From the NCBI GenBank assembly GCA_036397915.1, contig DASWIB010000203.1, positions 1 through 45,232 on the forward strand: DNA of 45,232 nucleotides, written 5' to 3'. Under the pieces are notes generated by a model that saw nothing but the letters and a program-made list of their open reading frames with translations, was not told the DNA's origin and did no database searches. Source of the DNA: Thermoanaerobaculia bacterium. GTDB taxonomy: Bacteria > Acidobacteriota > Thermoanaerobaculia > UBA5066 > Gp7-AA6. Of the stretch, positions 6,544 to 43,079 are shown piece after piece; the first letter of the stretch is position 1, and every line of letters starts with the position of its first letter. The position numbers were made by a program, and so were the translations under genes.

Positions 6544-6602
6544 CTAGGAATGTGTCCGAGTAATTTCTTGCGGGGGACCTTGCGGTCCCCCGAACCCCCT
6601 AG
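6544..6602 (-). repeat. Family-A 59-nt repeat, copy A1 (hairpin GGGGGACC-loop-GGTCCCCC with CTAG termini)
   Basis: ctaggaatgtgtccgagtaatttcttgcgggggaccttgcggtcccccgaaccccctag. The terminal CTAG contains the parB stop codon (6599-6601). Confidence 0.9.
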
Positions 6603-7447
6603 GCCCGTGCGAGCCGCTCGTAGAGGCCGATCAACTCCTCCTCCGACCCGAACGCGATCTCGACTCTCCCGCCGCGCCGGCGCCGAACGATCCGCACGCG
6701 TGTCTTCAGGCGCCGCGAAAGCTTCTCCTCCGCATCACGGGTCAACGGGTCACGGCGGTGTTCTCTCGTTAGCTTACCCGCGGAACCGGTGTTCGCCACC
6801 CGTTTTTCCGTCTGCCGCACGGAAAGTGCGCGTCTCACGATCTCCTCGGCGAGCCGCTCCTGGTCGTCCGGAGAGGCCAGGGACGCCAGGGCCCGCGCGT
6901 GTCCGGCCGAGAGCTGCCCCGAGCGGATTCGGTCACGAACGCCCGATGGAAGCTTCAGGAGCCGCAGAGTATTCGTGACGGTCGTGCGGTCTTTCCCGAC
7001 CCGCTCCGCGATCTTCTCGTGTGAGAGCCGGAACTCCTCCTTCAGGCGCGCGTACGCTTCCGCGGCGTCGAGCGGATTCAGGTCTTCGCGCTGGAGGTTT
7101 TCGACCAGGGCGACTTCGAGCAGGTCGCTCTCCGATTGCCTCTCCCGCCAGACGACCGGAACACGGGTGAGGCCGGCCATCGCGGCCGCCCGCCACCGTC
7201 TCTCGCCGGCGACGATCTCGAGTTTCTCTCCTTGCGAGGTGACCACGATCGGTTGGACGACCCCGTGCTCGCGAATCGAGGCCGCGAGCTCCGCGAGCGC
7301 GGCATCGGAGAATTCCCGGCGCGGTTGAAAGCGGTTGGGGACGAGCCGGCCGATTTCGACTTCCCTTGCGCCTGTTTCCCGTGGAACCTCTTCTCGCCCC
7401 GGGAGGAGCGCCGACAGACCGCGGCCGAGGGCCTGTTTCTGGGTCAT
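6599..7447 (-). CDS. parB: Chromosome partitioning protein ParB/Spo0J
   Basis: 282 aa with the GRGLSALL N-terminal motif, the ParB box (IVAGERRWRAA) and the HTH region (SHEKIAERVGKDRTTVTNTLRLLKLP). Confidence 0.95.
   Translation of the reverse strand: MTQKQALGRGLSALLPGREEVPRETGAREVEIGRLVPNRFQPRREFSDAALAELAASIREHGVVQPIVVTSQGEKLEIVAGERRWRAAAMAGLTRVPVVWRERQSESDLLEVALVENLQREDLNPLDAAEAYARLKEEFRLSHEKIAERVGKDRTTVTNTLRLLKLPSGVRDRIRSGQLSAGHARALASLASPDDQERLAEEIVRRALSVRQTEKRVANTGSAGKLTREHRRDPLTRDAEEKLSRRLKTRVRIVRRRRGGRVEIAFGSEEELIGLYERLARA
7373..7388. promoter_or_regulatory. parS-like site (TGTTTCCCGTGGAACC) inside the 5' part of parB
   Basis: 13/16 match to the remembered parS consensus TGTTTCACGTGAAACA. 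It shares the core CCCGTGGAAC with the site at 8367-8382. Confidence 0.35.
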
Positions 7448-8208
7448 TGAGTCTCCCTATTCAGAAGTTCTTTTCCAAGAGCGAGATAGGCCTCCGCCCC
7501 CCGCGACTTGATGTCGTAAGCCAACACCGGCTTGCCGAACGATGGGGCCTCCCCGAGCCGGACGTTGCGGGGGATCACCGTCTCGTACACGAGCCTTCCG
7601 AAGTGTCTCCGGATGTCCTCGACGACCTGCTTGCCGAGGTTGGTCCGGTCGTCGTACATCGTGAGGAGAATCCCCTCGATCTGCAGGTCCGGATTGAACG
7701 CGTTCCGTACCCGTTCCACCGACTCCAGCAGCTCGGTCACGCCCTCCAGGGCGAAGTACTCCGTCTGGAGCGGAATCAGAAGCGAGTCCGCGGCCGTCAA
7801 CCCGTTGACGGTCAGAAGAGAGAGCGAGGGCGGGCAATCGATGAACATGAAATCGAAATCTTCTCGCACGCGGTCGACTGCCTCCCGCAGGCGGCGCTCG
7901 CGCCCCTTCTGGTCGACGAGCTCGATCTCGGCTCCCACGAGGTCGCGACCCGAGGGAAGCAGCCAGAGGTTGGGAAAGGCAGTGGGCTGGAGCGCCTCGC
8001 GAGGATCCGCTCCCAGGAGCACGTCGTAGGCGTTGGCGCCGTTCTTCTGCCGCGAGAACCCGAGACCCGAAGTGGCGTTCGCCTGGGGATCGAAATCGAC
8101 GATCGCGATCTTGCGGTCGAACGCGGCGAGGGCGGCCGCGAGGTTGATGGCGGTCGTGGTCTTTCCCACGCCCCCTTTCTGGTTGGCGATCGCCACGACT
8201 CGACTCAC
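7444..8208 (-). CDS. parA: Chromosome partitioning ATPase ParA/Soj
   Basis: Deviant Walker A in (M)SRVVAIANQKGGVGKTTT. The track ORF extends to 8895, but that extension is Arg/Pro-rich non-coding read-through. A GTG at 8208 (alternative GTG at 8232) gives a normal ~254-aa ParA. The gene overlaps the parB start by 4 nt. Confidence 0.92.
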   Translation of the reverse strand: MSRVVAIANQKGGVGKTTTAINLAAALAAFDRKIAIVDFDPQANATSGLGFSRQKNGANAYDVLLGADPREALQPTAFPNLWLLPSGRDLVGAEIELVDQKGRERRLREAVDRVREDFDFMFIDCPPSLSLLTVNGLTAADSLLIPLQTEYFALEGVTELLESVERVRNAFNPDLQIEGILLTMYDDRTNLGKQVVEDIRRHFGRLVYETVIPRNVRLGEAPSFGKPVLAYDIKSRGAEAYLALGKELLNRETQ

Positions 8209-8366
8209 TTTTCGAACATTCTGGAGCTTCACCGGCCAAATGGAAAGAGCGAAGACAGGAACTCCAAAGAGATGCGGGTGACGAGCCCTCCCCGGCAGCC
8301 GCCTCCAGTCAGGCCCGGGTCGTGGGCCCCCCCCACCCAACAGTTGTCTCGAGAGGTAGCGGGACA

Positions 8367-8382
8367 TGTTCCCCGTGGAACA
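8367..8382. promoter_or_regulatory. parS-like near-palindrome TGTTCCCCGTGGAACA upstream of parA
   Basis: The 16-mer is palindromic except for one position. It differs from the consensus parS by a symmetric T5>C/A12>G pair plus one mismatch. Its location (rsmG-parA spacer) is typical for parS. Confidence 0.45.
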
Positions 8383-8390
8383 TCCGGGAA

Positions 8391-9029: not shown

Positions 9030-10878
9030 GCGCGCAGATTATCGCGACGGCCGCTGGTGTCACCCCGGGAATGCGAGCCGCCTCTCCAATCGTGCGCGGG
9101 CGCCTCCTTGCGCACTTCTCCACGACCTCGCGAGAGAGGCCGGGAACGCCGTCGTAGAGGAAATCCGCAGGGATCCGGCGGCTCTCCAGGGGTTTCAGCC
9201 GTTCGACCCGATCCCGCTCGCGCCGGATGTATCCTTCGTAGCGCACCCGGCTCTCCAGGACGGCGCGCTCCTCGCGGTCGAGGCTCGACAGAATCTCCGG
9301 AGCCCAGCGAGCGAGGGCATCTGACGATAAATCCTGTCTTTTCAGTAGGTTACGAAGGCTGGACGGCCGGTCGAGCCGGATTCCGAGCACTCTCTCGATT
9401 TCGGCGCTCGTCTCCCGGTCCGGCCGGATCTCCGTCGAAGCCAGCTCGGCCTCCGCCCGACGGAGCCGCTCCTCCGATCTCATGGCGAGCGAGTAGTCCT
9501 CGGAGGAGACGAGGCCGAACCGCCGCGCGTACGGCAGAAGGCGCGGGAGGACCGAATCGACGCCGAGCAGAAGGCGGTACTCGGCGCGCGAGGTGAAGAG
9601 ACGGTACGGTTCCTCCAGTCCTTTGGTCGTCAGGTCGTCGACCAGGACCGCGGCGTACGCTTCCGAGCGGTCGAGCACGAAAGGCTCTTCGCCGCGCACC
9701 GCGAGCGCCGCGTTGATCCCCGCCCAGATCCCCTGCGCCGCGGCCTCTTCGTAGCCCGAAGTTCCGTTGATCTGGCCGGCGAAGAAAACCCGGGGAACTT
9801 CCCGCGCTTCCAGAGAGGAGCGGAGCTGCTCGGGGAACGAGAAGTCGTATTCGACCGCGTACCCCGGACGGATCATCCTCGCGCGCGCGAGCCCCGGGAT
9901 CTCGCGGAGGATCGCCCGCTGAACGTCTTCGGGAAGGGAAGTCGAGAGGCCGTTGATGTAGATCTCCTCCGCATCCCAGCCGTCCGGCTCCAGAAAGATC
10001 GAGTGGCGCGGCTTGTCGGCGAACTTGACGACCTTGTCCTCGACGGACGGGCAATAGCGCGGACCGATGCCGATGATTCGGCCCGAGTACATCGGGCTCG
10101 CGTGGAGGTTGTCGCGGATGAGCGCGTGAACGCGCTCGTTCGTCGCCGTCAGCCAGCAGAGCGCCTGCTCCCGGGAAAGGCTCTCCGTGCGGAACGAGAA
10201 GGGAACCGGCGGATCGTCGCCGCGCTGCGGCTCGCACAAATCGTAATCGACGGTGTCGCGGTGCACGCGCGGGGGCGTGCCGGTCTTGAAGCGGCCGAGT
10301 CGCAGTCCGAGCCTCGCGAGCGCGGCCGAAAGTCCGACGGCGGCCGGCTCTCCCACCCGCCCGCCCTCGGTCCGTTTCTCGCCCGTGTGCATGAGGCCGC
10401 GCAGAAACGTGCCGGTGGTCACGACGACGGCCGAGGCTTCGATGCGCTGGCCGGTGGCTGTGACGATTCCGGTGACGCGTCCGCCCTGGACGGTGAAGTC
10501 CTCCACCATGCCCTCGATGAGCCGAAGGTTCTCCGTCTCGGAGAGAGCCTGCGCGGCGATGCGCGAGTAGAGCGCCCGGTCGCATTGCGCGCGCGGCCCC
10601 CACACCGCCGGGCCGCGGGAGCGATTGAGGATCTTGAACTGGATTCCCGCCCGGTCCGCCAGGCGACCCATCAACCCGCCGAGCGCGTCGATTTCCCGGA
10701 CGAGCTGCCCTTTCGCGAGACCGCCGATCGCGGGGTTGCAGGACATCCGCGCGATCGCGCGGAGATCGCCGGTGACGAGCGCCGTCGCCAGACCCATCCG
10801 GGCCGCGGCATGGCTCGCTTCGCACCCGGCGTGGCCTGCCCCGATGACGACGACGTCGAACTTCTCCACGTCGCTCAT
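8998..10878 (-). CDS. mnmG: tRNA uridine 5-carboxymethylaminomethyl modification enzyme MnmG (GidA)
   Basis: 626 aa with the FAD motif [14 protein letters not shown], plus [19 protein letters not shown]. Confidence 0.97.
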
Positions 10879-12302
10879 TTTCCGATGCAGAAGGCCGAGA
10901 AGATCCGCTCGAGAACGTCTTCCGACGTCGTCTCGCCGAAGACGTCCGCGAGCGCGGCCAGAGCCGAATCAACGTGGGTCGCCGCGTACTCCGGCGAGAC
11001 GCCGCGCCCGAGTGCGCCCAGCGCTTCGTCCGTCGCCCCACGGGCGCGCTCGACCAGGTCGCGCTGGCGCACCGACCCGAGCACCTCCGAAGCGGAGTCG
11101 CTCGTCACGTCCGATGCGATGGTCTGCTCGAGCAGCGCGCGCAGCTTCGCACCGGCGTCGGAGGCGAGCCCGCGCAAGGCCAGTGCTCGGGGCGGTCCGC
11201 TCGCAGTGCGCACCGGCGATCCGTCCAGGGGGTTCGGGGGACCGCAAGGTCCCCCGCTGAGATTACTCGGACAAACTCCCAGGAGGTCGATCTTGTTCGC
11301 GACGAAAACGACCGGCTTTCCGTCGAGCCCCTCGACCGCCTCCCGGTCCTCCTCGATCCATCCCGCCGCGGCGTCGAAGACGTACAGGATCGCCGCGGCC
11401 CTTTGCCCCTCGTCGCGGGCGCGCTCGACTCCGATCCGCTCGATGCGGTCGTCGGTATCGCGGAGGCCCGCGGTGTCCACGAGCTCGACGGGGATCCCCC
11501 GCACGTCGAGCGTCGCGTGGAGGGTGTCGCGCGTCGTGCCGGGAACGTCCGTGACGATCGCCCGCTCCGTCCCGAGGAGCGCGTTGAAGAGCGTCGATTT
11601 GCCCGCGTTGGGACGGCCGAGGATCGCGACGCGGCAGCCACTGGAGAGAAGGCGCCCCGTGTCCCAGCTCGCCGCCAGGCGGGCGAAGCAATCGCGCGCG
11701 GCGGCGAGACGCTCGGGGACGGATGGGTCCACGTCTTCGCCGACGTCCTCGGCGAAGTCGATCGTCGCGGCGAGGCTCGCCGCCGCGGCCAGGAGGTCCT
11801 CACGCGCCCGACCGAGGCGCGAAGAGAGCCCTCCCTGGAGCCTCGCAGACGAGACGCGAGCGGCGGCCTCGGTCCGGGACTCGATCAAGTCCCGGATCGC
11901 CTCGGCTTCGACGAGATCCAGCTTGCCCGAGCGGAACGCTCTCTCCGTGAACTCGCCGGGACGAGCGGCGCGCGCGCCCGCCGCGGCGAGGAGACGGAGA
12001 AGCCTCTCGACGACGATCGGGCTCCCGTGCACGGAGAGCTCCGCCACGTCCTCGCCCGTATACGACGCCGGAGCGGCGAAGAGCGTCGCGAGCCCGCGGT
12101 CGATCGCCTCGCCCTCGAGATCGCAGAGCGAAACGAGGTACGGCCGGCGCGGTTCGATCCGCTCCCGCAGCTCCGGCGCGACCCGCGCGAGGATCTCGCG
12201 CGTGCGGTCGCCCGAAAGGCGCACGATCGCGACGGCGGAGCGGCCGAGGGGCGTCGCCAGAGCGGCGATCGTGTCGAGAAGCGAGTCGGAAGCGGGACGC
12301 AT
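10875..12302 (-). CDS. mnmE: tRNA modification GTPase MnmE (TrmE), carrying an in-frame repeat insertion
   Basis: 475 aa with an N-terminal [20 protein letters not shown]1 [10 protein letters not shown]3 DTAG, G4 NKID and a C-terminal FCIGK. Repeat copy A2 lies between G4 and the G5-like LASDAG. Confidence 0.93.
11225..11283 (+). repeat. Family-A repeat, copy A2, located inside the mnmE ORF
   Basis: ccagggggttcgggggaccgcaaggtcccccgctgagattactcggacaaactcccagg. On the mnmE strand it reads [20 protein letters not shown] with no stop or frameshift. Confidence 0.9.
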
Positions 12303-12391
12303 GTCAGAACGGTGTCCTATACAGCTGCGGTGGTGAGGTCAGCTTCCTCACGCCCGTCCCCGTCTTCCGGGGACCCCGGGGTGCCGACCTC

Positions 12392-13135: not shown

Positions 13136-13145
13136 CGTCCGTCTC

Positions 13146-13204
13146 CTCGGGGGTTCGGGGGCCGCAAGGTCTCCCGCAAAAAGATTATTCGGACACACTC
13201 CTGG
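13146..13204 (+). repeat. Family-A repeat, copy A3 (yidC-jag spacer)
   Basis: ctcgggggttcgggggccgcaaggtctcccgcaaaaagattattcggacacactcctgg. The hairpin has one compensated change (GGGGGCC/GGTCTCCC). Confidence 0.85.
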
Positions 13205-13207
13205 CGA

Positions 13208-14836: not shown

Positions 14837-14862
14837 TGCGCTTCAGGCTCCCGTCGAACGCG

Positions 14863-14920
14863 CCAGGGGGTTCGGGGGACCGCAAGGTCCCCCGCTGAGA
14901 TTACTCGGACACACTGCTTG
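14863..14920 (+). repeat. Family-A repeat, copy A4 (yidD-yidC spacer)
   Basis: ccagggggttcgggggaccgcaaggtcccccgctgagattactcggacacactgcttg. Confidence 0.9.
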
Positions 14921-14931
14921 ACGTCTCGCGA

Positions 14932-15770: not shown

Positions 15771-15830
15771 CCAGGGGGCTCGGGGGACCGCAAGGTCCCC
15801 CGCGAAAAGATCACTCGGACATACTCCTGG
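15771..15830 (+). repeat. Family-A repeat, copy A5 (rpmH-dnaA divergent spacer)
   Basis: ccagggggctcgggggaccgcaaggtcccccgcgaaaagatcactcggacatactcctgg, with CCAGG/CCTGG termini. Confidence 0.9.
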
Positions 15831-15888
15831 GACCCGATAGCTCTGGTCTCCCTGCTCCTGTATACTCCGCCGCCTTCTTCGAAAGAGG

Positions 15889-18590: not shown

Positions 18591-23918
<5,328 letters not shown>

Positions 23919-23932
23919 GGAGGCTTCCCCCC

Positions 23933-24160
23933 CTGTCATCCCGAGCGAAGCGAGGGATCTGGCCGCGTAGCGGTCATCCTGAGCGAAGCGAAGGATCTCT
24001 TGGCCAAATGGAGAGATCCTTCGTCGCTTCGCTCCTCAGGATGACAACTCGTCGCTTCGCTCCTCGGAATGACAACTCGTCGCTTCGTTCCTCAGGATGA
24101 CAACTCGTCGCTTCGCTCCTCAGGATGACAACTCGTCGCTTCGCTCCTCGGAATGACAGG
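23933..24160. repeat. Family-B repeat cluster in the gyrB-gyrA spacer: two forward half-sites plus five tandem 28-bp reverse half-sites
   Basis: Forward copies are ctgtcatcccgagcgaagcgagggatct (23933-23960) and ggtcatcctgagcgaagcgaaggatctct (from 23972). The reverse unit TCGTCGCTTCG(C/T)TCCTC(A/G)G(G/A)ATGACA(AC/GG) repeats head-to-tail 5 times at 24021-24160 with no spacers. Confidence 0.9.
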
Positions 24161-30655: not shown

Positions 30656-31240
30656 ATGAAAGGGATTGCGGTTCTCGCTCTCCAGGGCGACTTCGCGGCG
30701 CACGGGCGTCGGCTCGCGGAGATGGGGCTCGACTCTTTCGAGGCGAGGAAGCCCGACCAGATCCAGGGCGCCTCCGGCCTCGTTGTGCCTGGCGGCGAGT
30801 CGACGACGTTCTGGAAGTTCTTCGAGTCCGCGCCATGGGAGGAGGCCATCCGCGCTTTTGCCGGCACCGGGCGTCCGATCCTCGGAACCTGCGCCGGCGC
30901 GATCGTCCTCGCGCGCGAGGTCACGAACCCGGTCCAGCGGGGACTCGGCCTGATCGACATCGCCGTCGAGCGCAACGCGTATGGCCGCCAGGTGGACTCG
31001 TTCGTCGGCGAGGTCGACGCGCCCGAGCTCGGCGGCGCTCTTCCCGCCGTGTTCATCCGTGCGCCGAGGATCCGCCGCGTCGGACCCGAGGTCGAAGTCC
31101 TCGCGACGCGCGAGTCGGAGCCGGTGCTCGTTCAACAGGGGAACGTCATCGCCGCGACTTTTCACCCGGAGCTGACGCTCGACCCGGCCGTCCACGAGCT
31201 CGCCTTCGGACCGCGCCGTTTTGCGCGGAGGACCGCCTGA
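30656..31240 (+). CDS. pdxT: Pyridoxal 5'-phosphate synthase glutaminase subunit PdxT
   Basis: 194 aa with IAVLALQGDFAAH, GLVVPGGESTT, the catalytic Cys in ILGTCAGAI, and FHPELT at the C-terminus. Confidence 0.95.
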   Translation: MKGIAVLALQGDFAAHGRRLAEMGLDSFEARKPDQIQGASGLVVPGGESTTFWKFFESAPWEEAIRAFAGTGRPILGTCAGAIVLAREVTNPVQRGLGLIDIAVERNAYGRQVDSFVGEVDAPELGGALPAVFIRAPRIRRVGPEVEVLATRESEPVLVQQGNVIAATFHPELTLDPAVHELAFGPRRFARRTA

Positions 31241-31989
31241 GCCTCGTCCGCGTCGACACCCGCGAGGGCGGCGTCGCCCTCGTTGCTCTCGACCGGCCGC
31301 GCGCGAACGCGTTCAGCCCGGATCTCATCGCCGACCTCACCCGCGCGATCGCCGCCGCGGCGGACGCGCCCGCGCTCGTGCTCGCGTCGTCCCAGCCGCT
31401 CTTCTCGGCGGGATGGGATCTTCCGGCGGCGCGAGCGCTCGCCCGAGGGGACATGGCGCGCTTTCTCGCCGACTTCTGCGGCCTCGTGCGAGCGATCTTC
31501 GCGTTCGAGGCGCCCGTCGTCGCCGCGCTTCCCGGGCACGCGATCGCGGGCGGCCTGATCGTGGCTGCGGCCGCCGACGAGCGGATCGCGGCGGAGGGGA
31601 AGGGCGAGCTCGGTCTTTCCGAGGTCGCTCTCGGGGTCCCGATCCCGCGATCGTGTTACGAGGTCTTCCGCCACGTTCTCGGCGAGCGGGGAGCCGAGCG
31701 GCTCGCCGCGGCGGGCGACAACGTGTCGGTTGCCCGCGCGTTCGAGATCGGGCTCGTGGACCGGGTGGTCCCGGCGGCCGATCTCCTCGATGCGGCACTC
31801 GACCGGGCACGGCAGCTCGCGGGGCGCTCGCGAGCCGCCTACGCCGAGATCAAGCGCCGCGCGCGGGCGGCAGCGCTTGTGCGCTTCGACGCCGCCGCCG
31901 AAGCCGATCCCTTCCTCGACTTCTGGTTCTCGGCGGAAGCACAGCGTCGGATCCACGCGCTCGTCGAACGGTTGACGAAGAGAGCTTGA
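31237..31989 (+). CDS. Enoyl-CoA hydratase/isomerase (crotonase) family protein; start codon unresolved
   Basis: Crotonase pattern GGVALVALDRPRANAF...LFSAGWDL...PGHAIAGGLIVAAAADERIA...LGLSEVALGVPIP. The homologous region begins right at the pdxT stop. No ATG/GTG/TTG is in frame nearby, only CTG at 31237. Confidence 0.75.
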   Translation: MSLVRVDTREGGVALVALDRPRANAFSPDLIADLTRAIAAAADAPALVLASSQPLFSAGWDLPAARALARGDMARFLADFCGLVRAIFAFEAPVVAALPGHAIAGGLIVAAAADERIAAEGKGELGLSEVALGVPIPRSCYEVFRHVLGERGAERLAAAGDNVSVARAFEIGLVDRVVPAADLLDAALDRARQLAGRSRAAYAEIKRRARAAALVRFDAAAEADPFLDFWFSAEAQRRIHALVERLTKRA

Positions 31990-33233
31990 CTTCCGCGCCC
32001 CTCGACCTCGGGGACGTGCCGGCGGACGAGATCCTCGACGCCCTTGAGCTCGCACCCGAGGGGCCGTCGCTCGCGTTCCTGGAGAGGCTCTTCCACCGTT
32101 TCAACGCGCGCGTGCCGTTCGAGACGGCGTCCAAGATCATCCGGCACGCGGACGTACCCGACCCGGCGGAGAAGCCGCGCGTTCCAGAAGTCTTCTGGCG
32201 GGACTTCCTCGAATCCGGAACCGGCGGGACCTGCTACCCGCGGGTCGCGGCGTTCGACGCGCTCGTCTCCCGCCTGGGGTTCGCGACGCGGAAAGCGCTC
32301 GGGCGCGTCGAGAAGGACTTCGATCACGCCGCGCTCGTCGTGTCGCTTCCGGAACGCGAGTGGATTGCCGACATCGGGTTTCCGCTTCCGGCGCTGTTGC
32401 CGGCCGGTGGGGGAGACGTCGAGACGGAGACCGCCACGCTTTCGGCGAGCGAAAGCGGGCGCGGCCTGAGCGTGCGATTTCTCTCCGGCGTACCGGGCGG
32501 GCCGCGACGCCTCGAGATCTTCCGCGAGCCCGTCTCGGAGGACGAGTTTCTCGCGCTCTGGCGCAAGACCTTCCATCCCGATTCGAAGTTCCTGAAGAAC
32601 GTCTCGCTTTACCGAAGGGATGCCCACCGGGTGCTCACTTTTTCCCGGGGCGAGGCGCGCGTGGACGACCTCCACTCGCGCACGCGAATCCCGCTGGCAG
32701 TCGACCGAGCGCGCCGGCTCGCGGAGATCTTCGGGATCGCGGAGGAGGTCCTCGGCCGCGCGTTCTCGATCGCCGGGGATCCGGATCCCGAGATCGGCGA
32801 TGCGCGAATCACGGCGTATCTGTCCGTCGAGATCGAGCCCCGGCGCGCCTTCCAGGCGATCGCGACCGCGGAGGGCTGGCGCGAGCTCATGAGCGGCGTC
32901 ACCGACATCGTCGCGCTGCAGCGAACCGGCGCCGGCTGGCGCGCGCGGCTCGCGCCGCCCGGCGTGCCGGACGCGGGATTCGAAGAGGAAATCGCGCTCG
33001 ATTCCGATCGGCTCGCGCTTTCAATCGTGCGCCGCTACCCGGACGGGGCGGCGGCATCTTCCGGCTATCGTGTCGAGTCGAGCGAGGGAGAGACGTACCT
33101 GGTGCGCGAGGCGATCCTCTCCGGGCCGCGGGAGGATCTCCTCAAGAACGACTATGCGCGCGGCCGCCTCGCCGGAACGCTGGCGGTGGATCTGCTGGCC
33201 TGGGCGCGGCTCACGGGACTCGGGCCCGAATAG
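31986..33233 (+). CDS. Arylamine N-acetyltransferase (NAT)-fold domain fused to a C-terminal SRPBCC-like domain
   Basis: The TTG start overlaps the previous stop (TTGA). NAT triad contexts are GGTCYPRVAAFDALVSRLGF (Cys), DHAALVVSL (His) and WIADIGFP (Asp). The C-terminal ~165 aa (ITAYLSVEIEPRRAFQAIATAEGWRELM...) look START/SRPBCC-like, but this assignment is weak. Confidence 0.6.
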   Translation: MTSAPLDLGDVPADEILDALELAPEGPSLAFLERLFHRFNARVPFETASKIIRHADVPDPAEKPRVPEVFWRDFLESGTGGTCYPRVAAFDALVSRLGFATRKALGRVEKDFDHAALVVSLPEREWIADIGFPLPALLPAGGGDVETETATLSASESGRGLSVRFLSGVPGGPRRLEIFREPVSEDEFLALWRKTFHPDSKFLKNVSLYRRDAHRVLTFSRGEARVDDLHSRTRIPLAVDRARRLAEIFGIAEEVLGRAFSIAGDPDPEIGDARITAYLSVEIEPRRAFQAIATAEGWRELMSGVTDIVALQRTGAGWRARLAPPGVPDAGFEEEIALDSDRLALSIVRRYPDGAAASSGYRVESSEGETYLVREAILSGPREDLLKNDYARGRLAGTLAVDLLAWARLTGLGPE

Positions 33234-33235: not shown

Positions 33236-33351
33236 CCCGGGGGTGCGGGGGACCGCAAGGTCCGCCGCCAAAAGACTACTCGGACCCACTCCCCGGGGGT
33301 GCGGGGGACCGCAAGGTCTCCCGCCAAAAGACTACTCGGACCCACTCGTAG
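33236..33351 (+). repeat. Family-A repeats, copies A8 and A9 (head-to-tail pair, GGGGGTGCGGGGGACC variant)
   Basis: Two consecutive ~58-nt units, cc(c)gggggtgcgggggaccgcaaggtc(c/t)(g/c)ccgccaaaagactactcggacccact, lie between the convergent NAT-like and MBL genes. Confidence 0.9.
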
Positions 33352-33370
33352 TCCGGAGTGGACCCGATCC

Positions 33371-34186
33371 TCAAAACCGGAAGCTCCGCTCCGACTCGAG
33401 CAGCTTCAGACGCGGCTCCCGCAGTGCGGCAATTTCGCGGCGGATGCGCGCGAGCGACGGCGGCTTCATGTGGTACAGATACACGGGTACTCTCGGCGGC
33501 ATCTTCGCGAGCTCTTTCGCGACGAGGCGCGGCGTCATGTGCTTCGACTCGCGGGCAGCCTCCGCCTGAGTGTCCGAGAAGGAGACCTCGAGGAAGATCG
33601 CCTTCAAGTTCCGCACCCGCCGCGCCGCCTGCCAGAGCCGTTCGGTCGGGGCGGTGTCACCCGAGAAGACGACCGAGCGCCCCGGCTTCGCGACGATGTA
33701 TCCGTAGCCGGGAATGAGATGCGACACGGGCACCGGCGTGAGCGTCACCGAGCCCGCGCGGAACGGCCGCCCTTCGCTCATCGGCCGAAAACGAAGCGTG
33801 GGGCGCGCGGGCGAAGGCAGGCGCGTGAAGTCGGGCCACGTCACGTCGTTGAAAACGTGCTTTCGTAATGCGAAGAGAACTGGCTCGGGCGCGGCCACCT
33901 CCAGGGGAGCGGATTCGCGACCGACGAGGTTCGCGACCAGAAACGGGAGCGACGCGAAGTGGTCGAAGTGCGCGTGCGTGAGCACGACGCGCCGGACGCG
34001 GCGCTGCGCCCCGAATGGAAGCGTCTCGGTCAAGGAGCCGGCGTCGAGCGCCGTCTCGCCGTCGATCAGAAAGGTCGTCATCCGGTATCCGGGCGCGGAC
34101 CCACCGTAGGTTCCGAGGACCCGGATGGCCAGCGAGGTTCGCTGCGGCAAGGCGAAGCGATTGTACGACTCCAAGCCGCCTGTCAT
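33371..34186 (-). CDS. MBL-fold metallo-hydrolase (class-II cyclic-nucleotide-phosphodiesterase-like)
   Basis: 271 aa with the beta-lactamase-fold motif VVLTHAHFDHFASLPFLV and an N-terminal IRVLGTYGGSAPGYRMTTFLIDG pattern. The listed ATG lies inside a family-B repeat, so the exact start is uncertain. Confidence 0.7.
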   Translation of the reverse strand: MTGGLESYNRFALPQRTSLAIRVLGTYGGSAPGYRMTTFLIDGETALDAGSLTETLPFGAQRRVRRVVLTHAHFDHFASLPFLVANLVGRESAPLEVAAPEPVLFALRKHVFNDVTWPDFTRLPSPARPTLRFRPMSEGRPFRAGSVTLTPVPVSHLIPGYGYIVAKPGRSVVFSGDTAPTERLWQAARRVRNLKAIFLEVSFSDTQAEAARESKHMTPRLVAKELAKMPPRVPVYLYHMKPPSLARIRREIAALREPRLKLLESERSFRF

Positions 34187-34234
34187 CCCGAGGAGCGAAG
34201 CGACGAGGGATCCCGCGCGTCGCTCGGGATGACA
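34181..34234. repeat. Family-B palindromic element between the Omp85-fusion gene and the MBL gene
   Basis: tgtcatcccgaggagcgaagcgacgagggatcccgcgcgtcgctcgggatgaca. Its left arm supplies the candidate ATG of the MBL gene. Confidence 0.85.
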
Positions 34235-34244
34235 TTGAGTAGGG

Positions 34245-37142
34245 CTAGAACTGCGCCCCGATGTAGAACGACGTCTTCAATCCCGACAGAGTCTGCCTGA
34301 AGTCCCAGAGCTTTGCGAAGTCCCAGTGGAGCTGCAGGCCCAGAAGGCTGATCTGGAATCCGAAGCCGTAAGAGGCCCTCCCGTCTTTCAGCCGCCACTT
34401 GCCCTCTTCGTCCTCATCGGCGAATTGGAACGTCTGGTCCTTGAGCGCGGCGCCGCCGACGTCGACGAACACCTGACCGCGGATGTCGCGGAAGGCGCCG
34501 ATCGGAAAGGCAAGAATGTCGATGAGCGGAAACCGGTACTCGAGGTTCGCGTATCCGACGGTGTTGCCGATCTGCTCGCGGAAATCGAGGCCGCGGAGCG
34601 TGTCGAGGCCGCCGAAGTAGTAGACGTTCGGGAAGTTGCCCGTCGAGTGTGCACCGAAGAGCCGGACGGCGATGAGCGACCGCTCCGTAATTTTGAAATA
34701 GTGGCGCAGATCGACGGACACGTCCGACGAGAGCGTGTTCGAGTTCTCGATCCTGGTCGTGTTGGGGTCGTCCTCGGCCTTGAAGTCCGGCGCGTACGAG
34801 TAAGAGATCGAGAAGCGGCGTCCGGAAAGTGGTCCCCACGCGCGGTAGAGCACGGTGTCGCTCACCAGAGAAACCCCCGCGGTCGGATAGTTGTCCTCCC
34901 GCGCGGCGACCAGAAAGCCCTGGCTTCCGTCGGCGTTTCGGATCACGAACGGGAAGTCGAACTTTCGGGAGATGAAGCCGAGCTCGCCGTCGATCCGGTA
35001 ATAGCGCGAGAGCGGGTAGCTCGCGAGCAGGAGCCCGCCGGTCTGTCGGTAGACCCGGCGTCCGCGCTCGATCACCCCGCGTGATTGGTCGAAGCTCAGG
35101 AAAAAGGTCCGGTCGTCGAAGAGCGCGAAGCCGGTCTGGAGCCGGCGTCTCAGGTTGAAGTAAATGAAGTTGAAGTTGGTGAACGAGGACAGCGACTGGA
35201 ACTGCGCGATCAGGCGCCGGTCGCCGAGGTTGTCGCCGAAGATCAAGACGGTGCTCGACACGAAGGTCTGGTCGGTGTTGACCCCCGCGACGACCTGCGC
35301 GTCCTCGAGCTGCAGCTTATGGCTCGCGCGCGGCTTGACCTTCTCGGGATCGATCGAGACCTCGATCGCGGGCTGGAACGGCGCCTCGGACTCCGGCCCG
35401 GCCGGCGAGACGGCGGGTGCGAGCTCCGGCAGCCGGCGGACCGCCTTCTTCGAGTCCGCGATGTAGAGCGTGAAGCGCCGCTTGTAGTACGCGGCGAAAA
35501 CGAGCTTCTCGGTGTTGTCCCTGCCGATGAAGACCGTGGGGGTGAAGGCGCCGGCGACGACGTTCGTGTGGAGGTTCGTCTCGCCGGTCTCCAGGTTGAT
35601 CGAGTAGATGTTGTAGATGCCGCCGTCCCGGTCGGATGTGAAGAAGAGCCGCTTCCCGTCGGGCGTGAGCGCCGCGTCCTCGTCGTTCCACTCTCCGTAG
35701 GTGATCTGCTGGCGCGAACCGGGCGCGGCAGGATCGAAGCGGAAAATCTTCGCCTTCGTACCGCGGACGGAGGAGTAGTAAATCCACTTCCCGTCGAGCG
35801 AGTAGGTCGGAGCGAAGTCGAAAGCCTCGTCATCCGTCAGATTCATGACGTTCCTCGAGGTGAGCGAGTACGCCCAGATGTCGGCGCGCCCGCCTTTCAA
35901 GGCGCGGAAGACGACCGTGTTTCCGTCCGGCGAAAATGCGGGATTCAGCTGCTGATCGAGGTCGGGCATCTCGACGCGCTCGCGGATGCCGCCGTCCAGA
36001 GCGTTTAGAAGCAGCAACTCGCGGCCCCTCTCGCGCCTCGCGAACACAGCGACCGAGTTCCCGTCCGGCGAGACCGCGACGTCCACGCCCCCGAGTGGAG
36101 CCGTTGTCAGCCACTGGCTCGCGATGTACTCGTACCGGGTCGTGTAGCCCTTCGTCAGGTTGCGGTAGAGCTTTCGCTCCCGTGTCGAGAGCACGACGAC
36201 GTCGGCGTCGTCCTTCAGTGTCGAGATCGCCGCGATGAAGTCGCCCGAGGGATAGGCGCGGGGCGAGAGCTCGGCCGAGGGCTCCTCTTCGAGCTTGAAC
36301 CGCTCGCCGAAGTCGATCGGCTCGCCCTTCTCGGTCAGGATCTTCAGGTACTTCTGCCGCAGATAGCGCCGGAACTTGACGTCGAAGTCCTCCGCCGAGA
36401 GGTTGAAGGCCCGCCGGATGACCTTTTCGACGTTGCCGCCGATCTGGTTGCGGAACTCGAAGACGAAGTCGCGGACCGAGTCCTTCCCCCACTCCGCCTC
36501 GATGAAATCGAACACCGCGTGTCCGAACCGGTACGCGAAGAACCCGCCGACGCCCACCGCGGCAATCTCCGGGACCTGGTCCGCGAGCACCGCGTCGCGC
36601 AGGACCATCCGGTCCTTGTTGTCCTCGTCGTTGCCGAAATACGACGCCATCCCCTCCGTGAACCACTGGGGCGCGTTCGTCGTGGTAGCGCGGATGTAGT
36701 TGCCTCCGAACAGGATCTCGAACTGGAAGACGTGCGTGAGCTCGTGCGCGATGAGCTGCTGGAGCTTCTCGTCGGGAAGGTCGATCGGAAGCACCATCCG
36801 GTTGCGAGACGGCAGCGCGAACGCGCCGATCCCTTCGGGAATGAAGTTCAGGATCGTGTTCGTCTGCTCGAAGTCCGAATGGGTCGCGTAGTAGATCAGG
36901 TTGATCGGCTTGGGGATCTGGAAGTTGAGCGCACGCGAGATTTCGTCGTAGGCGCTCTCGGCATACGACGTGACTTTGGTGAGCGCAATCCGCTCCGTCT
37001 CGTAGAAGTAGATCGTGAAGTGGGTCGAGCGATAGATCTTCCAGTCGAACTTGTCGTAGGCGATCTTGTTCTTGCCGAATTGCGCGCCGGCGGGCGCCGC
37101 GGCACAAAGGAGGAGAGTGAGCGCGATCGCGATCTTCTTCAT
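34245..37142 (-). CDS. Outer-membrane multidomain protein: signal peptide + peptidase-MA-like (HExxH) + PD40/TolB-like beta-propeller + Omp85/surface-antigen beta-barrel
   Basis: 965 aa. The signal peptide is MKKIAIALTLLLCAAAPAGAQF. The gluzincin signature is HELTHVF ... WFTEGMASYFG. At least four PD40-type repeats are present (SPDGNSVAVF, FSPDGNTVVF, YSLDGKWIYYSS, LTPDGKRLFFTSDRDG). The C-terminal ~350 aa have alternating beta-strands ending ...SFYIGAQF, an aromatic OMP terminus. Confidence 0.8.
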   Translation of the reverse strand: MKKIAIALTLLLCAAAPAGAQFGKNKIAYDKFDWKIYRSTHFTIYFYETERIALTKVTSYAESAYDEISRALNFQIPKPINLIYYATHSDFEQTNTILNFIPEGIGAFALPSRNRMVLPIDLPDEKLQQLIAHELTHVFQFEILFGGNYIRATTTNAPQWFTEGMASYFGNDEDNKDRMVLRDAVLADQVPEIAAVGVGGFFAYRFGHAVFDFIEAEWGKDSVRDFVFEFRNQIGGNVEKVIRRAFNLSAEDFDVKFRRYLRQKYLKILTEKGEPIDFGERFKLEEEPSAELSPRAYPSGDFIAAISTLKDDADVVVLSTRERKLYRNLTKGYTTRYEYIASQWLTTAPLGGVDVAVSPDGNSVAVFARRERGRELLLLNALDGGIRERVEMPDLDQQLNPAFSPDGNTVVFRALKGGRADIWAYSLTSRNVMNLTDDEAFDFAPTYSLDGKWIYYSSVRGTKAKIFRFDPAAPGSRQQITYGEWNDEDAALTPDGKRLFFTSDRDGGIYNIYSINLETGETNLHTNVVAGAFTPTVFIGRDNTEKLVFAAYYKRRFTLYIADSKKAVRRLPELAPAVSPAGPESEAPFQPAIEVSIDPEKVKPRASHKLQLEDAQVVAGVNTDQTFVSSTVLIFGDNLGDRRLIAQFQSLSSFTNFNFIYFNLRRRLQTGFALFDDRTFFLSFDQSRGVIERGRRVYRQTGGLLLASYPLSRYYRIDGELGFISRKFDFPFVIRNADGSQGFLVAAREDNYPTAGVSLVSDTVLYRAWGPLSGRRFSISYSYAPDFKAEDDPNTTRIENSNTLSSDVSVDLRHYFKITERSLIAVRLFGAHSTGNFPNVYYFGGLDTLRGLDFREQIGNTVGYANLEYRFPLIDILAFPIGAFRDIRGQVFVDVGGAALKDQTFQFADEDEEGKWRLKDGRASYGFGFQISLLGLQLHWDFAKLWDFRQTLSGLKTSFYIGAQF

Positions 37143-37176
37143 GTCGAAGCCCTCCTCGGTGGCAACCCCTCCCCGA

Positions 37177-37260: not shown

Positions 37261-37325
37261 GGCGAAAAGACTGCTCGCGGCCGTGAACGGGATGTCGGAT
37301 GGTCGGTGCCTCGGCTTCAGCCCGG

Positions 37326-38021: not shown

Positions 38022-38139
38022 CCCGACCCTCCGGCTGCTCGCTTTGGGAATGACCCGACCGGTCGCGGTCGGAGCCTTCCTGTCGGCGAGAGGCGTCCCG
38101 CCCTCGCGCTCTCCCGCCGAGGGGAAAGGGGACTCGCGG

Positions 38140-38505: not shown

Positions 38506-38775
38506 TCCATCCTCGAGCTCCCCTCCCGGGGGCGGCTATTATAGGTAAGCCTTTTCGCGCTCGCGGAATTTCGCCGTTCCGATCGCGCGTCCCAACTCCT
38601 TCCGTCATTTCGGGGGCCGATCGCGAGCCCCCTCAGCCTGTCCCGAGCGGACGCGAAGGAGGGAGGTTCCGCGGGAGGACAGGAAGGTTAGGGAAACATG
38701 AAAGGCGCAACGTCCGATGGAGATCCCCGCGGAACCGGGTCCGGATCGGGTGCTGCCGAGAATAGTCTTCAGACG

Positions 38776-39885: not shown

Positions 39886-40009
39886 AAGCCCCGAGTCCCA
39901 AATCGCTCAGGGCTCACGGGAATACGTCGTTGTTGTAGTCACCGGGACACGCCCCGGAAGAGGTGCTTCGCGGCGGATGGCACGCGACGGCGCTTCACGC
40001 TCCGCCCGG

Positions 40010-40067
40010 CTAGGGGGCTCGGGGGACCGCAAGGTCCCCCGCTGAGATTACTCGGACAGACTCCTAG
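40010..40067 (+). repeat. Family-A repeat, copy A6 (upstream of topA)
   Basis: ctagggggctcgggggaccgcaaggtcccccgctgagattactcggacagactcctag, with CTAG at both ends. Confidence 0.9.
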
Positions 40068-40110
40068 TTTGCGCTTTGCAGTCCGTTGTGGCAGCGTCCC
40101 GCACCCTGTC

Positions 40111-42732
40111 ATGCCGAGCATCGTCATCGTCGAGTCGCCTGCGAAGGCGCGCACCCTGGAGAAGTTCCTGGGCAAGGACTTCCGTGTGCTCGCCTCGTAC
40201 GGGCACGTGCGGGACCTTCCGAAGAAGGGCCTGGGCGTGGACCGCGAGAACTCCTACGAGCCGACGTACGAGGTCCTTCACGGCAAGGAGAAGACGCTCC
40301 TCGAGCTGAAACGGGCCACGGCGAAGGCCGACGCGGTCTATCTCGCCGCGGACCCCGACCGTGAGGGAGAGGCGATCTCCTGGCACCTGAAGGAAACGCT
40401 CGCGCCGTCGGCCGGGGGCAAGCCGTTCCGCCGGGTGCGGTTCAACGAGATCACGAAGAGGGCCGTGCTGGCCGCGATGGACCAGGCCGGGGAGATCGAC
40501 TCCCGGCTCGTGGACGCGCAGCAGGCGCGCCGGATCATCGACCGGCTCGTCGGCTACGAGGTCTCCGACCTGCTGTGGAAGAAGATCTGGCGCGGGCTGT
40601 CCGCCGGCCGCGTCCAGACGGTCGCGCTGCGGATCATCTGCGAGCGCGAGAAGGACATCGAGAGCTTCGTCCCGGTCGAATACTGGACGGTGGACGCGGA
40701 TCTCGAAGCGTCCACGCCGCCGCCGTTCACCGCGAAGCTCGTCTCGTTCGACGGGCAGAAGCTCAAGTTCGACGGGACCGACCCGCGGCTGGATTCGGAG
40801 ACCGCGGCGGAGCGGGTGCGCCAGGAAGTGGAGCGCGCGGCGTGGCGGGTCGCCAAGGTCGACACTTCCGAGCGGCGCAAGAACCCGCCGCCCCCCTTCA
40901 TCACCTCGCAGCTCCAGCAGGCGGCCGCGCGGCGGCTCTCCTTCCCGGTCCGCCGCACGATGCAGATCGCGCAGCGCCTCTATGAAGGCCGCGAGATCCC
41001 GGGCCGCGGCACCGTCGGCTTGATCACGTACATGCGCACCGACTCCACGCGCGTCTCCAACGATGCTCTGGGGGCGGTTCGCGAGCACATCGCGGCACGG
41101 TACGGATCGGGTTCGGACGTCCTGCCGGATTCGGCGCGGTTCTTCCGCGGCAAGCGCGGCGTCCAGGACGCGCACGAGGCGATCCGTCCGACCGACCTGT
41201 CTCTCCCGCCGGACGAAGTCGCCCGCCACCTCTCGTCGGAAGAGGCGAAGCTCTATCGGCTGATCTGGGAACGATTCGTCGCGTCGCAGATGGCACCGGC
41301 CGTCTACGACACGGTCGCCGCCGAGATCGAGGCGGGCCGGGCCCTCTACCGCGCCTCCGGCTCGACGTTGAAGACGCCCGGCTACCTCGCGGCGCACGGC
41401 GTCGCGGTGGAAGAGGACGAGGAGGCCGAAAAAGAGGGCGCGAAGCTGCCGCCACTGACGGCCGGCGAGACGCTGAAGCTCATTGCCGTCAAGGCCGAAC
41501 GGAAAGAGACGCAGCCGCCGCCGCGCTTCAACGAGGCGTCACTCGTGAAGTTCCTCGAGGAGAACGGAATCGGCCGACCGTCCACATACGTCGAGATCCT
41601 GCGAAAGCTCGAGGACCGCGAGTACGTCCGCAAGAAGGACCGGCGGTTCATCCCCACGGCGCTCGGGCGTACCGTCGTCGAGCTCCTGATCCCGTACTTC
41701 GACGATTTCTTCGAGACCGGCTATACCGCGAAGATGGAGGAGCGTCTCGACGAAGTCGAGGAGGGAAAGCTCTCCTGGCGCACGGCGCTCGCGGAGTTCG
41801 ACGAGAAGTTCACGCGAGACCGCAACCGCGCGCTGGAGAAGATGGTCTCGAGCAAGGCGGGGATCCCGGTCGCCGACGCGCGCCAGCTTCACCTTCCGGT
41901 CCCGGCGGATCTCGAGGAGAAATGTCCGCAGTGTGGCAAGAAGCTGAAGCTGCGAATGGGCAAGAACGGGCTCTTCGTCGCGTGCAGCGGGTATCCCGCG
42001 TGCACGTTCACGATGCACATCCCCGACCCGGACGAGGACGCGATCGATTCGGCCGAGCTCGAGTCGACGACGTGCGAGGAGTGCGGCTCTCCGATGAAGC
42101 TGCGGCAGAGCCGGACCGGGAAGGCGTTCCTCGGCTGCACGGCCTATCCCCGCTGCCGCAACATCGTCAACGTCGTGATGGCCGAGGGAAAGGCCGAGGC
42201 GCGGCCGGACGAGGCGACGGGGGAAAGCTGCCCGCAGTGCGGCAGCCCGCTCGTGCGCCGACACGGCCGCTACGGCGCGTACGTCTCGTGCTCGAACTAT
42301 CCCGCGTGCCGGTACAAGCCCCCGAAGCCGGTCCTGGACACGGGCGTCCGATGCCCGAAGGACGGTGGCGCGATCGTCGAACGACGCGGCCGGTTCAAGC
42401 CGTTCTACGGTTGCGTGAACTACCCGGCCTGTGACTTCTCGCTGAACGCGCGTCCGATTCCGGAAGCGTGTCCCAGCTGCGGAAACCCGTATCTCCTTCT
42501 GCGCGAGCGCAAGGGTGGGGCGGTGCTCGCCTGCGATCGTGCCGGCTGTGGCTTCGAGAAACCGGCTGGCGAGATCCCGTCGATGAGAGAGGTGCTCGTC
42601 GAGACCCGACCGACTCCGCGAGTCGTTGCGGGGAAGGAGAAGCCCGCGCCGGCCGGGAGAAGGCTCTCGCGAGCGCGCTCGGCCGAGTCGAAGGCGGCCG
42701 CGCCGCGGCGCCGCGCCAAACGCGCCAGCTAG
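40111..42732 (+). CDS. topA: DNA topoisomerase I (type IA) with five C-terminal zinc-ribbon modules
   Basis: MPSIVIVESPAKARTLEKFLG Toprim start, the active-site region ITYMRTDST, and five CxxC...C..C repeats (CPQCGKK..., CEECGSP..., CPQCGSP..., CPKDGGA..., CPSCGNP...). The start is placed at the ATG at 40111. Confidence 0.95.
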   Translation: MPSIVIVESPAKARTLEKFLGKDFRVLASYGHVRDLPKKGLGVDRENSYEPTYEVLHGKEKTLLELKRATAKADAVYLAADPDREGEAISWHLKETLAPSAGGKPFRRVRFNEITKRAVLAAMDQAGEIDSRLVDAQQARRIIDRLVGYEVSDLLWKKIWRGLSAGRVQTVALRIICEREKDIESFVPVEYWTVDADLEASTPPPFTAKLVSFDGQKLKFDGTDPRLDSETAAERVRQEVERAAWRVAKVDTSERRKNPPPPFITSQLQQAAARRLSFPVRRTMQIAQRLYEGREIPGRGTVGLITYMRTDSTRVSNDALGAVREHIAARYGSGSDVLPDSARFFRGKRGVQDAHEAIRPTDLSLPPDEVARHLSSEEAKLYRLIWERFVASQMAPAVYDTVAAEIEAGRALYRASGSTLKTPGYLAAHGVAVEEDEEAEKEGAKLPPLTAGETLKLIAVKAERKETQPPPRFNEASLVKFLEENGIGRPSTYVEILRKLEDREYVRKKDRRFIPTALGRTVVELLIPYFDDFFETGYTAKMEERLDEVEEGKLSWRTALAEFDEKFTRDRNRALEKMVSSKAGIPVADARQLHLPVPADLEEKCPQCGKKLKLRMGKNGLFVACSGYPACTFTMHIPDPDEDAIDSAELESTTCEECGSPMKLRQSRTGKAFLGCTAYPRCRNIVNVVMAEGKAEARPDEATGESCPQCGSPLVRRHGRYGAYVSCSNYPACRYKPPKPVLDTGVRCPKDGGAIVERRGRFKPFYGCVNYPACDFSLNARPIPEACPSCGNPYLLLRERKGGAVLACDRAGCGFEKPAGEIPSMREVLVETRPTPRVVAGKEKPAPAGRRLSRARSAESKAAAPRRRAKRAS

Positions 42733-42787
42733 GAATGTGTCCGAGTAATCTTTTCGCGGGGGACCTTGCGGTCCCCCGAACCCCCAG
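42729..42787 (-). repeat. Family-A repeat, copy A7 (contains the topA stop codon)
   Basis: ctaggaatgtgtccgagtaatcttttcgcgggggaccttgcggtcccccgaacccccag. The TAG at 42730-42732 is the topA stop. Confidence 0.9.
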
Positions 42788-43021
42788 CCCGCACTATTCA
42801 CGAACGACTCCGGCCGCCCCGCGGATCTTTTTCCGCCATGCGACGTCAGGCCTCCTCTGCGATGCGCCCCGGCATCGCCGTCGTCGGCCTTCCTTGCCTG
42901 GCGAAAGAATCTCTCGCGGGAACAAGATGTACCTGGACTCAGGGAAGTCATCGTGTCGCACGCCTCCCCGGCTCAGTCGCTTGCCCGTGTTTCGGCCGGG
43001 TGCTCATGAATAGTGCGGGCT
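42786..43021. repeat. 236-bp segment bounded by 15-bp perfect inverted repeats (AGCCCGCACTATTCA / TGAATAGTGCGGGCT)
   Basis: IR-L is at 42786-42800 and IR-R at 43007-43021. Similarity extends imperfectly about 5 nt further. The segment is sandwiched between family-A copies A7 and A10. No convincing ORF lies inside. Confidence 0.6.
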
Positions 43022-43079
43022 AGGCGAGAAGGTGTCCGAGTTTGTCGGCGGGGGGCTTTGCGGTGCCCCGCACCCCCTG
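43020..43079 (-). repeat. Family-A repeat, diverged copy A10
   Basis: ctaggcgagaaggtgtccgagtttgtcggcggggggctttgcggtgccccgcaccccctg. It has the same layout as A7, but the hairpin is degenerated. Confidence 0.65.

Follow-up and report, generated by a model that had tools for sequence, protein, structure and literature searches.

The stretch of DNA analysed here (contig DASWIB010000203.1 of the Thermoanaerobaculia bacterium assembly GCA_036397915.1) comprises 45,232 nt; this whole stretch is called the window, and the coordinates of repeat copies refer to it. It is the replication-origin region of a genome with 66% G+C, and its best protein matches were named Thermoanaerobaculia. According to Pfam assignments and to the genes called on conspecific and related contigs, the minus strand carries, in this order, ATP synthase genes, a bactofilin gene, parB, parA, rsmG, mnmG, mnmE, jag, yidC, yidD, rnpA and rpmH, and the plus strand carries dnaA, dnaN, recF, gyrB and gyrA, onward to dprA, topA and an ABC transporter. 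Dispersed among these genes are ten copies of a short palindromic repeat, 54-59 nt long and built on the hairpin CGGGGGACC-GCAA-GGTCCCCCG, at a density of one per 4.5 kb; nine copies are intergenic and one (copy 2) is intragenic. The repeat is an insertion and not an ancient orthologous site, and it has spread recently through the genome of this soil acidobacterium.

Anatomy and placement of the ten copies

Searches with the 20-mer GGGGGACCGCAAGGTCCCCC, allowing up to three mismatches, gave ten matches in the 45.2-kb window, seven on the plus strand (11236, 13156, 14874, 15782, 33247, 33303 and 40021) and three on the minus strand (6572, 42758 and 43050), against an expectation of 0.01 in shuffled sequence, where none of 100 shuffles reached ten. 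The ten positions listed by a sequence-only reading of this DNA were thus recovered, and its approximate consensus was reproduced by aligning the ten copies. In this alignment conservation ends abruptly on both sides. The 5' tag AGGGGGNNCGGGG was found at all ten copies, with (A)GGGGG-NN-C preceding every hairpin, and the hairpin is followed by GC, a spacer of 3-5 nt (TGA, GAAAA or CAAAA) and then GATTACTCGGACA-N-ACTCC-YAG. The 22-nt arm GATTACTCGGACACACTCCTAG (up to three mismatches) lies beside eight of the hairpins, where none would be expected by chance, and a looser 10-mer detected the arm at all ten. The stem, earlier given as 8 bp, has 9 bp when the closing C-G pair is counted. The left flank is YAG or YNG in every window copy; the flanking triplets are identical in four copies (1, 2, 6 and 8) and differ by 1-3 bases in the other six, though the 51-nt cores differ by only 0-2 bases, and no consistent target-site duplication was recognised in the flanking triplets of the ten copies. 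The two ends share only CTAGG(G/A)G(G/T), that is, 5 perfect bp with 6 of 8 positions matching, and inverted termini of 5-8 bp.

As predicted by RNAalifold, the 9-bp hairpin forms on both strands, and an outer 5-bp helix (GGGGG/ACTCC) with an invariant G.U pair forms on the GCAA strand only. On that strand, stem variants pooled over copies of several genomes comprise 13 G.T or T.G pairs against 2 A.C or C.A pairs. The predicted pairing of the two ends is likewise confined to the GCAA strand, with -15.9 versus -13.8 kcal/mol for the long form and -14.6 versus -11.1 kcal/mol for the short form. The statement that hairpin variants keep their pairing stood in part: G.T wobbles do preserve it, but a bulge and mismatches also occur, and RNAalifold found no pair changed on both sides in the window copies on either strand.

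The positions of the copies in relation to genes were as follows, scores being those of a covariance model, R1, built from the element. Copy 1 (6543..6602, minus strand; 82.6 bits) lies in the parB-bactofilin spacer, sense to both genes, and its 5' terminal TAG is the stop codon of parB (6599-6601). Copy 2 (11225..11283, plus strand) is not intergenic but is placed inside the mnmE open reading frame (ORF; 10875-12302, minus strand), antisense and in frame. Copy 3 (13146..13205, plus strand; 71.8 bits), whose hairpin has a 1-nt deletion and a G.T pair, occupies the yidC-jag spacer, and copy 4 (14863..14921, plus strand) the yidD-yidC spacer, both antisense. Copy 5 (15771..15831, plus strand; 84.6 bits) stands in the divergent rpmH/dnaA region, directly upstream of conserved rpmH promoter-like boxes, TTGACT...TAGGAT. 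The gene context bears out the earlier placement of copies inside the yidD/yidC/jag operon and between rpmH and dnaA. Copies 6 (33236..33295, plus strand) and 7 (33292..33352, plus strand; 78.5 bits, with a G.T pair in the stem) form a head-to-tail pair with a start-to-start spacing of 56 nt and the junction CCG common to both; copy 6 begins 2 nt past the TAG stop of the gene at 31221-33233, to which it is sense. Copy 8 (40010..40068, plus strand) is sense in the dprA-topA spacer, directly upstream of a conserved TTGCGCTTTGCAG block that precedes topA. Directly upstream of this copy about 51 extra nt (AGAGGTGCTTCGCGGCGGATGGCACGCGACGGCGCTTCACGCTCCGCCCGG) were observed at 39955-40009, a segment that relatives with 88-92% TopA identity (L073, L152) lack in their dprA-topA spacer.

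Copy 9 (42728..42788, minus strand; 85 bits) is antisense to topA, and its 3' terminal TAG, read on the plus strand, is the topA stop codon (42730-42732). Copy 10 (43023..43080, minus strand; 54 bits) is degenerate and lies upstream of the ABC-ATPase gene, 15 nt from its ATG. In addition to the head-to-tail pair already noticed (copies 6 and 7), copies 10 and 9 constitute a second one, which is interrupted by an unrelated 236-nt MITE (miniature inverted-repeat transposable element) at 42786-43023. This MITE has terminal inverted repeats of about 17 nt (AGCCCGCACTATTCAYGA / TCATGAATAGTGCGGGCT) and sits exactly at the CTAG junction of the two copies; two further copies of it, at about 76% identity, were found in an unrelated Acidobacteriota metagenome-assembled genome (MAG; L035, 2913-3151 and 5358-5597).

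Copies 3, 4 and 6 start 2-11 nt past a stop codon, and half of the ten are no more than 11 nt from one. In relation to transcription, four copies are sense, five antisense and one lies in the divergent promoter region, which agrees with the earlier observation that both orientations occur. In relation to replication, the GCAA strand is on the lagging-strand template in five copies and not in the other five, a small sample; the origin is presumed to lie at rpmH/dnaA, where the gene strand switches and the GC skew has its minimum.

Presence and absence among relatives

The most informative comparison is that with contig L064, whose DNA is 94% identical to the window over 7.1 kb. The MnmE protein of this contig (P0005) shows 97% identity in aligned residues and is without exactly the 18 residues that the repeat encodes in the window. 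The empty mnmE site reads GACCTCCTC|GACGGATCG, and the window has CTCCTG[54 nt]GAC at this place; the net insertion of 54 nt corresponds to the 51-nt core and a further 3 nt, CAG standing on either side, and a duplication of between 0 and 5 bp would agree with this one filled/empty pair. Copy 1 is also found in L064 and L070, and the same spacer is empty in L065 and L067. In the yidC-jag spacer, L064 (258-310) has another palindromic element of about 50 nt, TAG-AGGGGTCAGGTTTAAGCCCGACCCCTCCTATGAACCCGACCCCTCT-TAG, at the TAG site where the window has copy 3, and of this element no further copy was found in the DNA examined, and the spacer measures only 11 nt in L067. The conspecific contigs L069 and L070, with 100% identical MnmE, carry two tandem copies with a 54-nt period at the yidD-yidC site, where the window has one. 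In L065 and L067, which are related at the genus level (MnmE about 75% identical) and have the same gene order, there are zero copies in 21 kb each; all five sites of the dnaA region are empty in both, and the spacers are about 40-60 nt shorter.

A similar picture was obtained at larger scale. When run over 152 sequences, model R1 detected full-length copies in contigs conspecific with the window and in a single long-read MAG, CAWINF01, and nowhere else. Over 779 kb, two 99%-identical contigs were the only ones with full-length copies, the other matches being two weak ones (L095) and a marginal one (L103), and about 104 kb syntenic around topA, with TopA 83-88% identical, contained none. Copy 8 is found in the 99% contigs (L072, L113) and missing in relatives with 83-92% TopA identity (L073-L081, L152 and L153). 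The topA sites offered no clean filled/empty junction; there the nearest relatives (L152 and L153, TopA 90-92%) differ by a block of about 110 nt and by downstream gene content.

The precise 54-nt difference in mnmE, the variation between one and two copies and the empty syntenic sites together indicate insertion with turnover. A comparison of empty and occupied sites had been proposed by the sequence-only reading, and the copies are indeed missing from the same spacers of syntenic relatives. Its preference for a MITE- or REP-like (repetitive extragenic palindrome) mobile element over a strand-specific riboregulator is supported by the same precise gap and copy-number variation and by the mixed orientation. 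As observed, copies arrive as discrete units of 54-56 nt at YAG or YNG sites, often at or next to a stop codon and in either orientation, and they can stack head to tail, sharing one triplet.

The wider family, copies inside genes and known repeat systems

An exact-match scan with one genome per species gave at least 63 loci. Among the matches listed, most were in Thermoanaerobaculia or in unclassified Acidobacteriota MAGs, at unrelated sites, and those in other phyla were plain hairpins without the tag, several of them followed by a T-run. In the listed Acidobacteriota matches, information content jumps at position -11 (S-Y-A-GGGGG-Y-Y-C) and is at background 3-8 nt past the stem. The conservation of the flanks is thus one-sided, and the core therefore consists of tag, hairpin and GC, which can be written C/G-Y-A-GGGGG-YYC-CGGGGGACC-GCAA-GGTCCCCCG-GC. 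In the sequences compared, the ACTCGGACA arm is an addition specific to the lineage of the window, so that the earlier description of a conserved arm holds for all ten window copies but not for the family-wide core. Elsewhere, shorter forms of 36-39 nt occur, often in tandem, with the layout YAG|GGGG-NNN-hairpin-GC-N3-6-CTCC|YAG, and the tandem arrays have periods of 36, 39 or 54 nt. The 3' arm (GAYTACTCGGACAC-ACTCCTAG) was also seen without the hairpin in other MAGs, as a palindrome of two inverted arms (L030, about 3918-3960; L045, 5580-5622). Since the arm occurs alone, the 59-nt form of the window looks like a chimera of two repeat modules. A scan of viral contigs for tag plus hairpin gave 0 matches.

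Many members of the family lie in frame inside genes. In the window, the 18 residues encoded by copy 2 follow directly after the NKID (G4) motif of MnmE. Compared with Pfam models, extra residues at the repeat were found in MnmE, the PHP domain of DnaE, Sir2, oligopeptidase B, a MacB-like protein and an alpha/beta hydrolase, and in the first four of these also in comparison with solved structures; in the Sir2 deacylase, about 20 residues face a single residue of the solved chain 1m2n. The copy of oligopeptidase B is in the propeller and that of the MacB-like protein in the periplasmic domain, and a further copy, placed solely by its position between Pfam domains, is in the linker of a PD40-amidohydrolase protein (L062). 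Direct reading of the hairpin revealed no stop codon in any of the six frames, and the commonest frames encode GGPQGPP (sense) or GGPCGPP (antisense). Copies survive in genes if they add a multiple of three nucleotides and are read in a frame that yields a loop rich in Gly and Pro. A crude GC3-based gene caller flagged many copies as intragenic and over-called such cases; those at the extreme N-terminus (L047, L008, L033, L039 and L095) were left aside, because a falsely extended start is the probable cause.

The stretch that follows NKxD in MnmE is not of constant length in the homologues. In other Thermoanaerobaculia, this loop holds one to three tandem 48-nt units of an unrelated hairpin repeat (GGTGCAGACCCCTTCGGGATCTGTCCCCGC; peptide DWTAAGADPFGICPRG), observed in L065 at 11060-11160 (GCA_036001245.1) and in P0006, P0022, P0023 and P0030, and the same 48-nt repeat is also dispersed elsewhere (L054, L073 and L074). 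Therefore, this loop is permissive and has been colonised repeatedly, by two unrelated repeats independently of each other.

Among known systems, the REP sequences of Proteobacteria, with their REP-associated tyrosine transposases (RAYT) and REPIN doublets (Nunvar 2010, PMC2817692; Bertels & Rainey 2011, PMC3116915; Di Nocera 2013, PMC3733652), resemble the element in many respects. They, too, are imperfect palindromes, short and present in many copies, with G.T pairs in the stem and a conserved tag beside it on one side; most occupy short spacers following genes, and their families are specific to lineages and show turnover among strains. Termini that give TAG stops and copies inside ORFs, some of them in frame and in replication genes, have already been documented for REPs in other phyla (PMC3733652). 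With ten copies in 45 kb, the element is a short, high-copy and mostly extragenic palindrome, as REP superfamilies are. It differs from them in its tag, YAGGGGG-YYC instead of GTAG/CGTC, in its host, an acidobacterium, and in that a RAYT was not found in about 1.4 Mb. On its 5' side the stem is bordered by C-Y-A-GGGGG-YYC and on its 3' side by GC-Y, and GTAG/CGTC stands beside it on neither strand. Inverted doublets of the REPIN type or of bacterial interspersed mosaic elements were absent from the 8-kb loci, and the window copies are single or head-to-tail (33236/33292 and 43080/42788). With inverted termini of 5-8 bp and no consistent target-site duplication, the element resembles REP-type tagged palindromes more closely than it does a classic MITE.

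The palindromic elements of Rickettsia (RPE) are 100-150 bp long, A+T-rich and restricted to that genus. They also occur in frame in conserved genes, where they add a tolerated surface peptide, whereas the present element is 36-59 nt long, G+C-rich, apparently unrelated in sequence and mostly intergenic; the likeness is one of behaviour only. The ends of IS200/IS605 insertion sequences (IS) and the palindrome-associated transposable elements (PATEs) offer a structural parallel, as the conserved segment 5' of the hairpin could pair with 3' bases as in the right end of IS608; long terminal inverted repeats and a clear duplication are missing in both cases, insertion appears to take place beside a short preferred sequence (here YAG) and copies stack head to tail. 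The element has a single hairpin instead of one per end, shows no bias to the lagging-strand template (5 versus 5) and has no TnpA found nearby. Finally, bacterial MITEs such as Correia/NEMIS, RUP and Nezha are, like the element, non-coding and dispersed, with short inverted termini and a preferred target, and can alter gene ends and promoters; the element is much shorter, with termini of 5-8 bp and a flanking duplication that is not consistent, and it has no known parent IS. The literature searched contained general work on REPs and RAYTs and no description of this repeat family and, as will be seen, Rfam gave no match, in accordance with the earlier statement that the element does not belong to a named family.

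Other repeats and unusual features were observed in the window. A second dispersed family, TGTCATCCCGAGCGAAGCGAGGGATC, occurs at 1722, 23934, 23971, 26833, 26920, 30515, 34181 and 37177, often as inverted pairs, and a 28-nt tandem array between gyrB and gyrA (23993-24158) is derived from it. The only near-match in Rfam, to the SAH riboswitch (34184-34265; 32.5 bits against a threshold of 37) falls on this family and not on the element and is probably due to chance. The gyrB ORF (18879-23918) is 1679 aa long; it contains an intein with a homing-endonuclease domain, since Pfam assigns the domains Intein_splicing and LAGLIDADG_3 to the conspecific gene on L069.

Mode of spread and meaning for the lineage

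We propose that the repeat is a short, non-autonomous, REP-like mobile DNA element that is moved in trans, an explanation to which we assign a probability of roughly 0.75. Its functional core would comprise the 5' tag (C/G-Y-A-GGGGG-Y-Y-C), the 9-bp G+C hairpin with the GCAA loop, and GC. In the lineage of the window, the last bases of the 3' extension, GATTACTCGGACA-N-ACTCC, may pair with the 5' G-run and join both ends of one strand. Movement would most likely involve a folded single strand, recognised by tag and hairpin, and the mover may be an HUH/Y1 transposase (RAYT- or IS200/IS605-like) encoded elsewhere in the genome. Effects on neighbouring genes, such as hairpins at mRNA 3' ends or altered promoter spacing, would be a by-product and not the reason for the copies. 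That the mobilising enzyme is of the Y1 type is a more tentative proposal, for which we would give somewhat less than even odds. It fits the layout of tag and hairpin, the 13:2 excess of wobble pairs, the predicted pairing of the ends on the GCAA strand and the succession of 5' segment, hairpin and complementary 3' segment, which resembles the arrangement of guide and cleavage site in the right end of IS608.

Several observations weigh against this explanation. No transposase was found beside any copy, either by a six-frame scan for the HUH...Y motif or by tblastn with approximate IS200 and IS608 TnpA queries, both of them weak tests given that the roughly 1.4 Mb covered are a tiny and non-random sample of each genome; the search for a transposase suggested by the sequence-only reading was therefore negative. 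The GTAG/CGTC tag of the described REP superfamilies (PMC3733652) is missing, and copies are single or head-to-tail and not in the inverted pairs of REPINs. Orientation is 5 versus 5 around the presumed dnaA origin, and IS200/IS605 elements are biased. The 13:2 wobble count pools copies of several genomes and is only suggestive, and the sole clean filled/empty pair can be explained equally well by a 3-5 bp duplication of C(C/G)AGG and by insertion without one. A pair of copies lying 4.65 kb apart in L029 was considered as a candidate IS and discarded, as the copies are the ends of a 300-nt duplicated segment.

It is also conceivable that the repeat is a classic MITE, that is, an internally deleted derivative of an IS (e.g. 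IS5- or IS630-like) with a DDE transposase that would recognise the short inverted termini, CYAGG(G/A)G, and make a 3-4 bp duplication of YAG or CTAG. IS5- or IS630-like elements favour CTAG or TA targets. The termini CTAGGGGG / ACTCCTAG are imperfect inverted repeats, the flanking triplets of copies 1, 2, 6 and 8 are identical, the gain in mnmE is the core plus 3 nt with CAG on either side, head-to-tail neighbours have one triplet in common, and the 236-nt element, a true MITE with terminal inverted repeats of 17 nt, occupies a YAG/CTAG junction of the same kind. We nevertheless consider a DDE enzyme acting on terminal inverted repeats unlikely, because the termini amount to 5-8 bp, far below usual transposase-binding ends, and the triplets match in only four of ten copies although the cores are nearly identical. 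In addition, conservation in the family concerns the 5' tag and the hairpin, with a 3' end that varies by lineage, and no parent IS was seen in the DNA examined.

A functional RNA or transcription element, for instance an mRNA 3'-end stabiliser or a terminator without U-tract, spread through a benefit for expression, would account for the very stable hairpin (about -19 kcal/mol for the alignment consensus), for the GNRA loop present on one strand only, for the position of five of the ten copies within 11 nt of a stop codon and for the preference for G.U-type variants on the GCAA strand; a role of this sort is known for REPs of other bacteria (PMC3733652). This explanation appears quite improbable to us, and it was rejected as the primary one, in view of the mixed orientation and the lack of any pair changed on both sides. 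Five of the ten are antisense, where the strand with GNRA loop and G.U pairs is not transcribed; copies also stand in frame within ORFs, and one occupies a divergent promoter region. After the stem comes GCTGAGATT or GCGAAAAGATT on one strand and GAACCCCCTAG on the other, with no T-run of an intrinsic terminator on either. A search of Rfam 15, which the sequence-only reading had called for, gave no match overlapping any copy at the gathering score or at E<5, Acido-1 and Acido-Lenti-1 included, and the element is thus not a functionally assigned Rfam family. Its presence also varies among near-identical strains. That the copies are a host recognition sequence (such as a DNA-uptake signal, or a binding site of gyrase or of a nucleoid protein) accumulating by recombination and not by transposition is hardly credible, for even if the same 31-nt tag plus hairpin is common to many species of the class, occurs in both orientations and inside genes, replication genes included, at one per 4.5 kb, and the window encodes DprA, the discrete 54-nt indels and sharp-edged tandem units are not motifs built by point mutation, and close relatives with the same genes carry none.

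If the repeat is a REP-like element moved in trans, as we prefer, a further possibility, which we regard as doubtful, is that tag and hairpin are the substrate of an undescribed domesticated single-strand transposase (HUH/Y1 or other) inherited across the class Thermoanaerobaculia, a REPIN-RAYT-like partnership outside Proteobacteria with a new tag, whose activity would routinely remodel conserved proteins (MnmE, DnaE, Sir2 and others) via GGP(Q/C)GPP loops.

For a poorly studied, uncultured soil lineage, model R1 and the core provide a defined and searchable repeat family. The repeats break short-read assemblies and mislead gene callers, giving false starts and extended ORFs in DNA of 66% G+C. 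They also change gene ends, as two stop codons of the window are supplied by the element, and alter conserved proteins. The family is a clear case, beyond Rickettsia and Proteobacteria, of palindromic repeats placed in frame in essential genes. Presence or absence at the strain level could serve as a population marker, and the element is of use in the annotation and genotyping of Thermoanaerobaculia. Should its transposase be found, the long-term association between element and host of the REP-RAYT type would be extended to another phylum.

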